The position numbers and the translations under genes were made by a program. DNA of 64,000 bases, from contig NDHX01000007.1 in NCBI GenBank assembly GCA_013626165.1, positions 6,560 through 70,559 on the forward strand, read 5' to 3'. Positions within the stretch are counted from its first letter, which is position 1. Every line of letters begins with the position of its first letter. Source of the DNA: Candidatus Velesiimonas alkalicola (GTDB lineage: Bacteria; Omnitrophota; Gorgyraeia; Velesiimonadales; Velesiimonadaceae). Shown one piece after another: positions 20,876-25,362 of the stretch. The notes beneath the pieces were generated by a model that was given only the letters and a program-made list of their open reading frames with translations, made no database searches and was not told the DNA's origin.

Positions 20876-20904
20876 TTTTTCCCCCGGTTGCAGTGACAGG
20901 CAAC

Positions 20905-20975
20905 TGGTGCTCTGGTGCTCTGGTGCCTGGTGCTCTGGTGCTCTGGTGCCCTGGTGCCCTGTCGCCAGTCACCTT
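20905..20975. repeat. GGTGACTGG-headed 8-mer (GGTGCTCT/CACCAGAG) tandem array upstream of accB
   Basis: Direct reading of ctggtgctctggtgctctggtgcctggtgctctggtgctctggtgccctggtgccctgtcgccagtcacc. Confidence 0.9.
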
Positions 20976-20978
20976 GTT

Positions 20979-22208
20979 TTATCCACCACCTAATGCACCC
21001 ATTAACTGAACAAGTGGCATAAACATTGCAACAACTATAAATCCAACCACGCCACCCATACCTAAAATTAGAATTGGTTCAAGAAGAGATGTAAGCCCGG
21101 CAACAGTAGTATCAACATCATCTTCGTAACTGTCGGCAATTTTTCCGAGCATCTGATCAAGGGCACCTGTTTCTTCTCCGACCTCTATCATACTTACAAC
21201 AAGTAACGGAAAAATTTTCACCTTTGCCAGTGGCCTGGCAATGGTCTCGCCTTCACGGATATTGTCATGAACAACCCCAAGCCCTTTACTTACAACCTCA
21301 TTTGCAACCGTGTTTCGGACAATCTGAAGTGCCTGAAGTATTGGAACACCGCTTGTAATAAGTGTCGCCAATGTTCTTGCAAAACGAGCAATCACTATCT
21401 TTTGCAAAAGAACACCTATTATCGGAATGTGTAGTTTTAACATATCAATGTAATAATTGATAACAGGGATTTTTACCAAAACCTTAAGCAATATAACCAT
21501 CCCCACAATTCCGCATATGGCAAAATACCATCTCTCTCTTGCAAAATTACTTATGCTCATTAAAAACAGAGTAATCCCGGGCATCTGAACATCCATCTCT
21601 GTAAATATTGTCATAAATTGCGGAACAATAAAAGTTACAAGAAACCCAACAACAATAGTAGCCACACATATAACTGCTGCCGGATATATAAGTGCGGACT
21701 TAACCTTTGCAATAAGTTTCCCTGCCTTTTCTGCAAATTCAGCAAGTCTTTCTAATACAACCTCAAGAGAACCGCTAGCTTCGCCTGCTTTTACCATACT
21801 TACATACAGCCTAGGAAATACCTTTGGATAAAAGGTAAGAGCCTCAGAGAATGTACTTCCTGTTTCAACTTTTTCTACAAGTCCTGAAAGAACATTTTTT
21901 AATCCGCCCGGATTGCACTGGTCCCTTAAAACATTTAAACTTCTAACCAAGGGAAGCCCTGCATCAAGAAGTGTGGCCATCTGTCTTGTAAAAAGTGTAA
22001 CCTCCTTGGATTTAACACCTGCTCCAATCGTAATGTTTGCAAGTCCCTTGCCCCCGGCCCACCATTTTGTCTTTACCTTATTTATAGTTGTTGTATAAAG
22101 TCCTTTGTCTCTTAATTTATTTATAGCCTGTGCAACATTATCCGCATCAATTGTCCCTTGTGCAGCCTTCCCAGCTCTGTCTGCTGATTTATATGTAAAT
22201 GTAGGCAT
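20979..22208 (-). CDS. pilC: type IV pilus / T2SS inner-membrane platform protein PilC (GspF family)
   Basis: 409 aa, two GspF repeats, three transmembrane segments, N-terminal MPTFTYKSADRAGK...G.IDA pattern. Confidence 0.9.
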   Translation of the reverse strand: MPTFTYKSADRAGKAAQGTIDADNVAQAINKLRDKGLYTTTINKVKTKWWAGGKGLANITIGAGVKSKEVTLFTRQMATLLDAGLPLVRSLNVLRDQCNPGGLKNVLSGLVEKVETGSTFSEALTFYPKVFPRLYVSMVKAGEASGSLEVVLERLAEFAEKAGKLIAKVKSALIYPAAVICVATIVVGFLVTFIVPQFMTIFTEMDVQMPGITLFLMSISNFARERWYFAICGIVGMVILLKVLVKIPVINYYIDMLKLHIPIIGVLLQKIVIARFARTLATLITSGVPILQALQIVRNTVANEVVSKGLGVVHDNIREGETIARPLAKVKIFPLLVVSMIEVGEETGALDQMLGKIADSYEDDVDTTVAGLTSLLEPILILGMGGVVGFIVVAMFMPLVQLMGALGGG

Positions 22209-22225
22209 ACCTACCCCCTTGTTTC

Positions 22226-22285
22226 AGGCAACTGGCAACAGAGCACCAGGCACCAGAGCACCAGAGCACCAGTTGCCTATCACCA
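22226..22285. repeat. 8-mer CACCAGAG tandem array upstream of pilC
   Basis: caggcaactggcaacagagcaccaggcaccagagcaccagagcaccagttgcc. Confidence 0.9.
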
Positions 22286-24013: not shown

Positions 24014-24120
24014 ATATCACCTAGCACCTATCACCAGGACACCTGTATTTCGTATCCCGTCTTTACAAACGACAGCTTTTACCTGTTATCTGTTGCCAGT
24101 TACCAGTCACCTTAACTTTA

Positions 24121-24200
24121 ATCTTCTATCTTCTATCTTCTATCTACTATCTACTATCTACTATCTACTACTATTTACTATCTACTATTTCCTACCTACT
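24121..24200. repeat. 7-mer (CTACTAT / TCTATCT) tandem array
   Basis: atcttctatcttctatcttctatctactatctactatctactatctactactatttactatctactatttcctacctact. Confidence 0.9.
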
Positions 24201-25271
24201 TTTTTTCTGCGATATTTCCTTTATCTTTGCCTGCATCTGCTCAGTGTCAAAACACTTTGTTATTGTCTCACCATATGAAATAATACCTCTTCCATATAAA
24301 TCAAAAAGATGTGCATCAAAGGTCTGCATGCCATATTTTGCGCCAGTCTGTATATCACTTGTAATTCTATATGTTTTTTTATCCCTTATCAAGGCCTGTA
24401 TTGAAGATGTGGTTATCATAATCTCAAAGGCTGCAACCCTTCCTTTGCCATCTGCTTTGGGAAGTAACTGTTGACATAATATCGCAAGAATACTGGTTGA
24501 AAGTTGTGTTCTTATCTGGTCCTGCTGGTGTGTAGGAAATACATCTATAATACGGTCAACTGTCTGTGCCGCACTTACAGTATGAAGTGTTGCCATAACA
24601 AGGTGACCTGTCTCTGCTGCCATAACAGCCGCTTCAATTGTGGCAAGATCCCTCATTTCACCAACAAGTACTACATCAGGATCCATACGAAGCGCCCTTA
24701 CAAGTCCCTCTTTGAAAGACGGAACATCTACCCCGAGTTCTCTCTGGGTAACAAGACCTTTTTTATGCGTATGGTAATATTCTATCGGATCTTCAATTGT
24801 AATGATATGACAGTCCCGTTCAACATTTATATAATCAAGCATCGTTGCAAGGGTTGTTGTTTTTCCACTTCCCGTAGGACCTGTTACAAGTATAAGTCCC
24901 CTCGGTTTATGTAGTATGTCTTTTATACCTGGTGGAATTCCAATCTGCTCAAAGGTAAGAAGTTTTTTAGGAATCATACGAAGTGCAACCCCAATTGTTC
25001 CTTTTTGTTTATGTATTGAAACACGAAATCTTGCAACATCCCCGAATGCAAAACCAAAGTCCATTCCTCCCTGTTCATGAAGTTTCTGCTGATGCTCCGG
25101 ACTTGTTATAGATTTCATCAATTCTTCTGTATCATCAGGTGTAAGCGACGCGCCAGAGACTCTATGTAATATACCATGTAGACGAAGTGTAGGCGGACTG
25201 TCCACAATCAGATGTATATCTGATGCACCCATATCCACACACATCTGAAGAATTTCACTTATATCTGGCAT
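24192..25271 (-). CDS. pilT: type IV pilus retraction ATPase PilT
   Basis: Start moved to MPDISE (AGGAGG Shine-Dalgarno); Walker A GPTGSGKTT, PilT-type AIRNLIRE-like region; listed N-terminal extension is translated repeat. Confidence 0.9.
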   Translation of the reverse strand: MPDISEILQMCVDMGASDIHLIVDSPPTLRLHGILHRVSGASLTPDDTEELMKSITSPEHQQKLHEQGGMDFGFAFGDVARFRVSIHKQKGTIGVALRMIPKKLLTFEQIGIPPGIKDILHKPRGLILVTGPTGSGKTTTLATMLDYINVERDCHIITIEDPIEYYHTHKKGLVTQRELGVDVPSFKEGLVRALRMDPDVVLVGEMRDLATIEAAVMAAETGHLVMATLHTVSAAQTVDRIIDVFPTHQQDQIRTQLSTSILAILCQQLLPKADGKGRVAAFEIMITTSSIQALIRDKKTYRITSDIQTGAKYGMQTFDAHLFDLYGRGIISYGETITKCFDTEQMQAKIKEISQKKSR

Positions 25272-25281
25272 AGACCTCCTT

Positions 25282-25362
25282 AGAGCACCAGAGCACCAGA
25301 GCACCAGAGCACCAGAGCACCAGTCGCCAGTCACCTGTCTTTACTACCTACTACCTACTACC
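25282..25362. repeat. 8-mer CACCAGAG array plus adjacent 7-mer CTACCTA array upstream of pilT
   Basis: tagagcaccagagcaccagagcaccagagcaccagtcgccagtcacc ... tactacctactacctactacctactat. Confidence 0.9.

Follow-up and report, generated by a model that had tools for sequence, protein, structure and literature searches.

Tandem arrays of 7- and 8-nt units between the genes of Candidatus Velesiimonas alkalicola

This study deals with tandem arrays of short repeat units, most often the octamer GGTGCTCT, that lie between genes in a 64,000-nt stretch of the genome of Candidatus Velesiimonas alkalicola (contig NDHX01000007.1 of assembly GCA_013626165.1, positions 6,560 to 70,559; hereafter the window). 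Genes confirmed by Pfam and by gene calls on a near-identical public contig include pilB1-pilT-pilB2-pilC-accB-accC, bamA, thiC, dnaB, rpsF-ssb-rpsR-rplI, prs, hisG, rpsA, secF, a xylose-isomerase-like gene, the gene of an H+-PPase, a nagB-like gene, valS, metG and a class II aminoacyl-tRNA synthetase (aaRS) gene. The names that an initial annotation, made from the sequence alone, had given to the genes downstream of the arrays were confirmed in this way, its proS site being the class II aaRS gene. The window is ~99.6-99.9% identical to metagenome contigs from the serpentinizing springs of The Cedars and to two Logan contigs. All named BamA matches (44-50% identity) belong to Omnitrophota, and the named PilT matches (~66-70% identity) are mostly from Omnitrophota, the remainder coming from other bacteria of the Planctomycetes-Verrucomicrobia-Chlamydiae (PVC) group. 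Judged by these matches, the host is a divergent Omnitrophota bacterium. Look-ups of the exact PilT and xylose-isomerase-like protein sequences gave no match.

We read the sequence directly at 17 tracts, comprising the 16 sites of the initial annotation and one further site (7689-7711), and the orientation of each tract (sense, antisense or mixed) was called by manual reading. An orientation classifier based on open reading frames (ORFs) wrongly labels the stop-free arrays as 'inORF' and was used qualitatively only. Array density was scanned with Tandem Repeats Finder (TRF; 6-9-nt units, score >=36), with the shuffled window as control.

Repeat units and their placement between genes

The arrays are real and non-random. 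In the window, GGTGACTGG occurs 10 times against 0.14 expected, two adjacent octamers (CTGGTGCNCTGGTGC at <=1 mismatch) give 49 matches against 0.01 expected, and TRF detects 21 arrays of 6-9-nt units compared to 0 in the shuffled window. None of the 16 initially listed sites is missing. TRF octamer arrays lie at or beside every one of them, as well as at the additional site; however, the octamer body that was described as usual is absent at 38577 and at 24079-24111, which contain heptamers only, and is degenerate at 24016-24041. Parsing of the tracts yields the octamers GGTGCTCT (n=35) and GGTGCACT (n=8), the variants GGTGCCT, GGTGGCT, GGTGCGCT and GGTGCCCT, and heptamers of the form GGYRACW (GGTGACT, n=9; GGCAACT, n=3; also GGCGACT and GGTAACT). 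Thus, the GGTGACTGG motif, initially described as the head of the arrays, is indeed enriched, but it consists of one or more 7-nt unit variants (GGTGACT, GGCAACT) of the octamer-body family and is not a separate element. The polarity is constant: one to three GGYRACW heptamers are followed by octamers at 9-10 loci, and antisense arrays (20893, 61432) keep this order too, although in the 59431 array GGTGACT-type heptamers are scattered among the octamers. A higher-order period of 23 nt (8+8+7) was found by TRF in four arrays. The 11-mer GCTGTCGTTTG is common to two spacers, and its frequency at <=2 mismatches is not above chance.

By manual reading, all 20 TRF arrays of period 7-8 with a score of >=38 lie between genes. 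At least 801 of the 1,100 array bases fall in the 11% of the window without ORF cover, and the rest are mostly arrays that naive ORFs read through. Among the 34 spacers of >=25 nt, 15 contain an array, and most arrays occupy short spacers of conserved operons, rpsF-ssb-rpsR-rplI and pilB-pilT-pilB-pilC. The downstream genes are functionally unrelated housekeeping genes. The arrays had been placed directly upstream of ribosome-binding sites, which holds for eight of the ten sense tracts, where the array ends 0-21 nt before the Shine-Dalgarno sequence; at bamA, for which a distance of 0-20 nt had been given, it is ~57 nt. The arrays begin just as tightly on or within ~10 nt of the upstream stop codon, which a repeat unit even overlaps at 10108 and 61466, and the whole spacer is filled. 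The arrays are therefore not a dedicated ribosome-binding-site module, since the spacer is filled from the upstream stop to the Shine-Dalgarno sequence and other repeat families are present as well. Their apparent siting just upstream of ribosome-binding sites would arise because arrays grow until constrained sequence halts them, at one end the preceding stop codon and at the other the Shine-Dalgarno sequence of the next gene.

Sense orientation, initially called usual, was found in ten of the 17 tracts (7689, 10108, 22226, 24016, 25282, 38577, 41064, 43481, 53461 and 54400), but two tracts are antisense, four are mixed-orientation hairpins (43985, 46690, 47211 and 47416), and one abuts the valS stop codon (61432). 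The tract upstream of accB, which had been cited as a sense example, is antisense; the reversed orientation noted upstream of the nagB-like gene is correct. Across the window, array strand follows neither one strand nor one direction. This bears on the proposal that the arrays act at the DNA level, as sites for nucleoid proteins of the IHF/HU type or as a Chi-like recombination signal. The CTGGTG core resembles E. coli Chi (GCTGGTGG), sharing six of its eight bases, but exact Chi is absent from the window, and the orientation pattern and the mismatch between an 8-nt period and the helical repeat also speak against such sites. The unit does resemble the GTTGCTYN octamer of Geobacter metallireducens, for which a nucleoid-protein role is itself a hypothesis (PMC2700814). 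We give the DNA-level proposal hardly any weight.

The individual tracts illustrate these features. At 7689-7711 (minus strand), GGTGCACT x2.5 lies in a divergent spacer, sense to a Gly-zipper protein gene (ATG 7674) and 8 nt before AGGAGG. The tract at 10108-10146 (plus strand; GGCAACAG x2, GGTGTTTT, GGTGCAAT, GGTGCTCT) is sense and runs from the metG stop codon, which it overlaps, to ~1 nt short of the Shine-Dalgarno sequence of the class II aaRS gene (ATG 10163). Within the pil region, the tract at 20893-20975 (plus strand) consists of the head GGCAACT and seven octamer or heptamer units, is antisense with respect to the direction from pilC to accB, has at its far end an inverted head (CCAGTCACC) and corresponds to a scaffold gap in BBPG01000290.1. 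The pilB2-to-pilC spacer holds a sense tract at 22226-22285 (minus strand; GGTGATA, GGCAACT, GGTGCTCT x2, GGTGCCT, GGTGCTCT), whose flanks GGCAACTGG/CCAGTTGCC give a hairpin (z -2.3). In the pilT-to-pilB2 spacer, the sense tract at 24016-24111 (minus strand) has the heads GGTGACT, GGTAACT and GGCAACA, after which come degenerate octamers reaching into the pilB2 Shine-Dalgarno sequence (AGGTGAT); it is identical in BBPG01000290.1. The same spacer contains, at 24121-24200 (minus strand) directly after the pilT stop, 12 TAG-type heptamers (TAGATAG/TAGAAGA). A 15-mer, AAAGCTGTCGTTTG(T/G), lies at 24066-24076 and 31330-31340 between the heptamer and octamer parts of repeat-filled spacers; there are two exact copies only, and looser matches are at chance level. 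Upstream of pilT, GGTGACT, GGCGACT and (GGTGCTCT) x5 at 25282-25340 (minus strand) are sense and abut AAGGAGG and the pilT ATG at 25271; this tract falls within a scaffold gap of BBPG01000290.1. It is preceded at 25342-25367 (minus strand) by TAGTAGG x3.7, ~4 nt after the pilB1 stop codon.

Further along, the tract at 38577-38604 (minus strand; GGTGACT, GGTAACC, GGTAACT) is sense, fills the 41-nt bamA-to-thiC spacer and is identical in three same-species contigs (L110, L111, L112). The dnaB-to-bamA spacer has a sense tract at 41064-41140 (minus strand; GGTAACG, GGCAACT, (GGTGCTCT) x6). At 43481-43537 (minus strand), GGCGACA, GGTGTTCC, GGTGCTCC, GGTGCCT and (GGTGCTCT) x3 lie in sense orientation in the ssb-to-rpsR spacer, ending 4 nt before GAGAGGAG. 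Mixed tracts with opposed octamers occupy the rpsF-to-ssb spacer (43985-44030; degenerate units, hairpin z -2.8, identical in Logan contig L113) and the region upstream of the prs Shine-Dalgarno sequence (46690-46741; hairpin z -1.8, identical in L113 and L114). Another mixed tract of octamers and heptamers (47211-47284) separates the duplicate copies of a basic 29-aa ORF, and the last (AGAGCACC ... GGTGACT GGTGCTC, 47416-47460) lies between the hisG stop and the second copy of this small ORF. At 53461-53487 (plus strand), GGTGCTCT, GGTGCATT and GGTGCTCT are sense and end 11 nt before the secF Shine-Dalgarno sequence. The spacer between secF and the xylose-isomerase-like gene is filled by the sense tract at 54400-54501 (plus strand), made of GGTGACT and 12 units with the 23-nt (8+8+7) period. 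Approximately 17 units (GGTGCTCT, GGTGCACT, GGTGCGCT, GGTGACT, GGTGCCAT) at 59431-59567 (minus strand) are antisense to the H+-PPase and nagB-like genes on both sides. Finally, GCAACT, GGTGCACT x2, GGTGTTCT and GGTGC at 61432-61466 (plus strand) abut the valS stop codon, which the last unit provides (CTA at 61466-61468); there is no gene start on the valS side.

Reading frames, promoters and RNA structure

Each unit carries GTG and leaves all six frames open, and ORF callers consequently produce false GTG-started extensions of the WCSGAL type. The initial annotation rightly regarded these extensions as artefacts: the unit has GTG and no stop in any frame, and PilT homologues span 96-100% of the 359-aa query, whose start codon is ATG 25271. 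A coding repeat was ruled out, as the WCSGAL-type translations sit upstream of a Shine-Dalgarno sequence and ATG.

The arrays are not -35/-10 promoters either, in agreement with the initial annotation. They occupy spacers of 40-180 nt within operons, and promoter-like matches overall are no more common than in shuffled sequences. One such match, TTTACA-18-TACAAT at 53426-53455, ends 6 nt before the 53461 array of secF. The arrays are probably present in mRNA because many lie inside conserved operons (rpsF-ssb-rpsR-rplI and the pil genes); together with the promoter-like site, this makes a transcribed leader, as proposed earlier, or an intercistronic location a natural inference, and we treat it as such.

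The folds of unidirectional array RNAs are no more stable than dinucleotide shuffles (z ~ -1.5 to +0.8). Folding of three mixed-orientation sites (22203-22300, 43962-44040 and 46655-46760) gave hairpins with z of -1.8 to -2.8. The Rfam 15 covariance models gave no gathering-score match in the whole window and none at E <= 0.1 in 42.9-47.5 kb, and a structured RNA or riboswitch was rejected on the basis of this result and of the z values of ~0 for unidirectional arrays. No terminator-like match was found at the arrays between 40.9 and 54.6 kb, and the z values of unidirectional arrays speak against the stable imperfect palindrome that is typical of repetitive extragenic palindromes (REP), bacterial interspersed mosaic elements (BIME) and, followed by a T-run, intrinsic terminators. 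CRISPR, tRNA and tmRNA were also rejected; none was found in the window, and the arrays have no unique spacers.

In a partition-function model, the array lowers the accessibility of the Shine-Dalgarno sequence in four of five leaders, and shuffled-unit controls do likewise. The modelled effect reaches a plateau after 1-4 copies in the pilT, rpsR and secF leaders. A graded occlusion of the Shine-Dalgarno sequence by copy number was therefore rejected, and the initial suggestion that copy number tunes expression is not borne out by the model, in which the effect is no greater than that of shuffled units and levels off in three leaders.

Variation, distribution and origin of the arrays

Same-species sequences comprised scaffold BBPG01000290.1 (L104; = GCA_002581605.1, GPS1 2012), contigs of the BBPF and BBPE assemblies and the two Logan contigs. 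Assemblies of the species break at perfect arrays. The N-gaps of L104 at scaffold positions 3640-3883, 9711-9972 and 14330-14480 coincide with the arrays at 20904, 25282 and 31265-31440, so that three of the five arrays compared there are N-gaps (the gap at 9711-9972 also conceals ~70 nt of the pilB1 3' end). Contig L112 begins inside the bamA array, and contig L113 terminates inside the rpsR array. Four ~99.6% identical assemblies carry three alleles of the perfect bamA array, with assembly error as a possible contributor: (GGTGCTCT)x6 in the window, x3 with GGTGCCCT and an extra GGTGAACGGTACAC in L110 and L111, and GGTGCCCT followed by x2 in L112. The imperfect arrays at 22226, 24016-24200, 31230-31480, 32538, 38577, 43985 and 46690 are identical across the assemblies compared. 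Thus, the slippage and copy-number polymorphism proposed initially are probable at perfect arrays in view of the bamA alleles and the assembly breaks, but imperfect arrays are invariant; the copy-number comparison suggested at that time reveals variation in one of ~10 comparable arrays.

Variation of this type raises the question of contingency loci, in which slippage would change copy number and thereby switch or grade the adjacent gene (phase variation). The bamA array does vary in both copy number and unit order among near-identical assemblies, the unit length is no multiple of 3, and a repeat in the 5' untranslated region of Moraxella UspA2 tunes expression, as cited in PMC4679880. However, the arrays lie outside coding frames, between a stop codon and a Shine-Dalgarno sequence, and not in an ORF or between -35 and -10 elements; the 53461 array is downstream of its predicted -10. 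The neighbours are housekeeping genes (rpsR, other ribosomal protein genes, ssb, prs, aaRS genes, secF, thiC, bamA), not surface, host-interaction or virulence genes. As only one of the ~10 comparable arrays varied and the modelled effect plateaus in three of five leaders, we regard contingency loci as extremely unlikely.

A sister species (L108), whose PilT is 88% identical, has a 260-nt spacer before pilT with (GGCACAGA)x3, (TAGACTA)x9 and six CTGGTGCW units, the last placed directly before the GGGGG-ATG of pilT. The units, the copy number and the upstream heptamers differ from those of the window, while the kind of array and its place are retained; the array persists with turnover. In relatives with 73-75% identical PilT (L105, L107 and L109), the spacers of pilB1-pilT-pilB2-pilC measure 3-63 nt, compared to 86-178 nt here, and arrays of this kind are essentially absent (0.3 per 10 kb by TRF, vs 3.3 in the window).

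Beyond these relatives, (GGTGCTCT)x3 was found at 103 loci in GTDB species genomes. The match-rich genomes are low-GC metagenome-assembled genomes (MAGs): JACQEW01 (labelled Nitrospinota), CAZVBB01, two labelled Bacteroidales, six Omnitrophota and several Planctomycetia. None of the GTDB genomes with (GGTGCTCT)x3 is a close relative of the window, and they are matches of the repeat only. In the match-rich MAGs, a gene start lies downstream of the GGTGCTCT octamer about equally often in the sense and antisense directions. At the sampled loci of JACQEW01 and CAZVBB01, the density is 12-15 arrays per 10 kb, and dozens of distinct units of 7-9 nt are used, many of them in inverted pairs. This unit diversity suggests that 7-9-nt units have a general propensity to expand and that no single motif is special.

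The comparative data also bear on the possibility that the arrays are a functional RNA platform, in which sense (GGUGCUCU)n would be bound by an S1-, Csp- or CsrA-like protein or by the ribosome and copy number would tune translation or decay. Several observations fit this proposal. Ten tracts are sense and eight of them end close to the Shine-Dalgarno sequence, the arrays within conserved operons are probably in mRNA, a predicted promoter ends shortly before the 53461 array, and the sister species retains an octamer array before pilT. In CAZVBB01, the arrays with a downstream gene start are three sense and 0 antisense. The unit contains the Shine-Dalgarno-like GGUG and the anti-Shine-Dalgarno-like CUCU, and modelled accessibility falls with the array. 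The same role has been proposed for TAACTGA repeats of Beggiatoaceae (PMC4679880). On the other hand, the fall in accessibility equals that of shuffled-unit controls and levels off at low copy number in three leaders; antisense and mixed arrays and the array at the valS stop exist; the sense direction is not preferred in other genomes; relatives have the same operons without the arrays; the downstream genes form an unrelated housekeeping set; and the arrays adjoin the upstream stop as tightly as the Shine-Dalgarno sequence. On balance, an RNA platform is unlikely. The initial proposal of a specific protein-binding platform fares no better, given the absence from relatives with the same operons, the lack of sense preference elsewhere and the many other units.

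Inverted pairs of the form (AGAGCACC)n-loop-(GGTGCTCT)n are usual in JACQEW01 and in several Omnitrophota and Planctomycetia MAGs, and other units in these genomes also form inverted pairs. Many hairpins in which each arm is a tandem array were seen at the JACQEW01 loci (L002, L023, L031, L034, L075, L078) and the CAZVBB01 loci (L012-L103), and we know of no prior description of this architecture. The arrays of the window might accordingly be hairpin-forming dispersed elements, such as REP/BIME, miniature inverted-repeat transposable elements (MITEs) or fast-evolving terminators, with the unidirectional arrays as half-elements copied between loci. Four window sites have opposed octamers, the three folded sites give the hairpins described above, an inverted pair (GGCAACTGG/CCAGTTGCC) surrounds the 22226 array, and several loci share the head-to-body module and the GGTGCCT variant. 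In G. metallireducens, sites of four GTTGCTYN copies are paired on opposite strands (PMC2700814). Nevertheless, most window arrays are unidirectional and unstructured, no array in 40.9-54.6 kb has a terminator-like match, no transposase gene or target-site duplication was seen, and the unit diversity in other genomes speaks against a single mobile element. Dispersed hairpin elements are quite improbable as an explanation of the arrays.

We consider it reasonably probable that the arrays are short tandem repeats specific to this lineage, driven by slippage and made of 7-8-nt units, similar in class to long simple sequence repeats (LSSRs) and short tandemly repeated repetitive (STRR) sequences. 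We infer that slippage generates them, that they are transcribed and that they are nearly neutral. Replication slippage would create the repeats and drive their turnover, and they would survive only between genes because a unit of 7-8 nt disrupts the reading frame. Since mismatch repair acts on loops no larger than a few nucleotides, 7-8-nt loops would escape it, which may explain the unit length. The GGYRACW heptamers would mark the older, more degenerate 5' end of each array, and arrays inside operons would be carried passively in mRNA as leaders or intercistronic spacers.

A number of points weigh against an origin by slippage alone. The bias of 10:2 toward sense among unidirectional arrays preceding a gene is nominally non-random (two-sided binomial p ~0.04), although it may come from selection against harmful RNA in one orientation, without requiring a positive function. 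The octamer array before pilT has been kept across 12% PilT divergence, which also fits selection. A single octamer family supplies ~15 of the ~25-30 tracts in the window, and the combination of GGTGACT and GGTGCTCT occurs in unrelated MAGs as well. The heptamer-then-octamer polarity is not predicted by local slippage and suggests copying between loci or a shared constraint. The arrays may moreover have a function.

A more speculative proposal combines several of these elements: the octamer arrays would form a genome-wide, orientation-dependent layer of RNA punctuation. Leader (GGUGCUCU)n could be bound by a dedicated RNA-binding protein or pair in trans with the perfectly complementary antisense (AGAGCACC)n of other transcripts, for example in the accB and nagB-like leaders; where transcription units end, antisense arrays, being C-rich, could act as loading sites for Rho; and hypervariable copy number could spread the expression of housekeeping operons across a slow-growing subsurface population. 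Taken jointly, this is very unlikely.

Whatever their origin, the arrays have practical consequences. They fragment metagenome assemblies, with scaffold gaps and contig ends falling in them, and in Omnitrophota and other repeat-rich MAGs they lead ORF callers to add false N-terminal extensions that start at GTG. They could also serve as strain markers for uncultured populations, in the manner of variable-number tandem repeats. Repeated sampling of the species at The Cedars makes copy-number dynamics and read-through transcription directly measurable. If functional, the arrays would represent a new post-transcriptional signal; if neutral, they would show how far slippage can reshape intergenic DNA.

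Further repeats in the window and comparison with known systems

The GGTGCTCT octamer is the most common of several intergenic repeat families in the window. TAGTAGG/TAGATAG heptamers occur right after stop codons at 24121, 25342, 31403 and 32538, with an inverted partner at 31257. These TAG-rich tracts (24121-24200, 25342-25367, 31257-31290, 31403-31480, 32510-32561) usually lie a few nucleotides after a stop in sense orientation and provide each of the three frames with stop codons; 31257-31290 is an inverted copy of 31414-31469, ~110 nt away, and 32510-32525 with 32538-32561 makes a local hairpin. Upstream of rpsA (49971-50060), GGTGTCAA x4.5 is followed by CCTTGAAA-type copies, with partial inverted partners. 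In the stretch 51567-51672, which begins shortly beyond the cmk stop and lies upstream of the gene at 50896-51501, ATTTGAC x5.9 (51635) stands opposite ATGTCAAA-type units (51567-51614). Additional families are ACGGTNT at 41025 and TCCGTAT at 13640.

Longer repeated elements were observed as well. A ~195-nt element at 43024-43221 and 46846-47040 (copies 89-99% identical, with terminal inverted repeats), one copy of which lies between rpsR and rplI, folds very stably, with a minimum free energy of -77 kcal/mol (z -7.0). Rfam gives no match for this element, which may be a MITE or an undescribed structured RNA. A 74-nt near-perfect palindrome (GGGGTCAACTCTATTTTCT...AGAAAATAGAGTTGACCCC) is present in two unrelated spacers (27089-27162 and 53245-53318; 97% identical). 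The 123-nt direct repeat at 47046-47168 and 47285-47407 is 100% identical between its copies, which are 239 nt apart; each copy contains the 29-aa very basic ORF (MPCGRKRKKAKMAKHKRKKRLRANRHKKK; 47066-47155 and 47305-47394, minus strand) with a GGGGG Shine-Dalgarno sequence and flanking octamer tracts. In the BBPF assembly (L111, 869-1008), a ~140-nt hairpin element (GATTACACAGATT...AATCTGTGTAATC) lies between dnaB and rplI. It is missing at that position (42575-42589) in the window and in BBPG, and an 87% identical copy is found at 3878-3994; this is a presence/absence polymorphism of a MITE-like element.

The function of intergenic families with 7-8-nt units, such as STRR, TAACTGA, GGGNATC and the Geobacter octamers, has been a question for decades, and the present organism is an unusually dense case, with arrays even within rpsF-ssb-rpsR-rplI. 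The cyanobacterial STRR heptamers were reportedly described by Mazel et al. in 1990, their units being CCCCAGT (STRR1), TTGGTCA (STRR2) and CAACAGT (STRR3). In contrast to cyanobacteria with STRR, the present host is not a cyanobacterium, and no tandem STRR1-3 units occur in the window. Contingency repeats of host-adapted pathogens usually have units of 1-5 nt and are located in ORFs or between -35 and -10, beside surface or virulence genes. The arrays share with them the slippage-prone repeats near gene starts and copy-number variation at one array, but here 7-8-nt units lie upstream of Shine-Dalgarno sequences, beside housekeeping genes. To our knowledge, a polarity of heptamer head followed by octamer body has not been described for LSSR or STRR repeats.

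LSSR families with heptamer and octamer units and an enrichment between genes are known from the literature (PMC4679880, citing Mrazek et al. 2007; PMC4692102). LSSRs (units of 5-11 nt) are there characterized as tandem repeats beyond chance that occur sporadically across phyla and for which a slippage origin has been proposed, which resembles the 7-8-nt units found here (Mrazek et al. 2007 via PMC4679880). Head-to-tail repetition is likewise beyond chance in the window (49 vs 0.01 adjacent octamers; 21 vs 0 TRF arrays), and units that are no multiple of 3, which in LSSRs are depleted in coding sequence, are confined to spacers in all 20 arrays.

TAACTGA heptamer repeats are known from marine Beggiatoaceae and from some Cyanobacteria and Bacteroidetes (MacGregor 2015, PMC4679880). 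Both systems have many intergenic short tandem sets next to unrelated housekeeping genes, including ribosomal ones, and a patchy distribution. The TAACTGA sets are mostly forward and a few nucleotides from start codons, and here 10 of 17 tracts are sense with eight near a Shine-Dalgarno sequence, a likeness of behaviour and not of membership. The unit here is instead the octamer GGTGCTCT with GGYRACW heptamers, in an Omnitrophota host, and canonical Shine-Dalgarno sequences follow the arrays, whereas the repeats of BOGUAY overlap the expected position of the ribosome-binding site and canonical sites are rare (PMC4679880). Tandem TAACTGA was not found in the window (0, with seven single copies). 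The density of ~3 per 10 kb looks higher than the 169 sets of the BOGUAY draft genome, a figure that is unnormalised (PMC4679880).

GGGNATC heptamers of Xanthomonas and Nostoc, which form G-quadruplexes, are mostly transcribed (Rehm et al. 2015, PMC4692102). As here, they are over-represented between co-directional ORFs, within ~50 bp of ORF ends, in variable copy number. However, the unit here has GG runs only, from which no more than a weak quadruplex of two tetrads might form, four units are not a preferred number, and the window has no tandem GGGNATC. The class 1 sites of G. metallireducens consist of four tandem GTTGCTYN copies, mostly as opposite-strand pairs (Aklujkar et al. 2009, PMC2700814). 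That octamer is 1-2 positions from GGTGCTCT and is likewise tandem, found in opposed pairs, intergenic and species-specific, with a hypothesised function; its fixed four copies differ from the 2.5 to ~17 copies here, most arrays here are unpaired, and no tandem GTTGCTYN occurs in the window. Our literature search found neither the repeat sequence itself nor tandem repeats in Omnitrophota. Since the window contains no tandem copy of TAACTGA, STRR, GGGNATC or GTTGCTYN, the arrays are no member of a named family; their behaviour places them in the known general kind to which LSSR, STRR-like and TAACTGA-like repeats belong.

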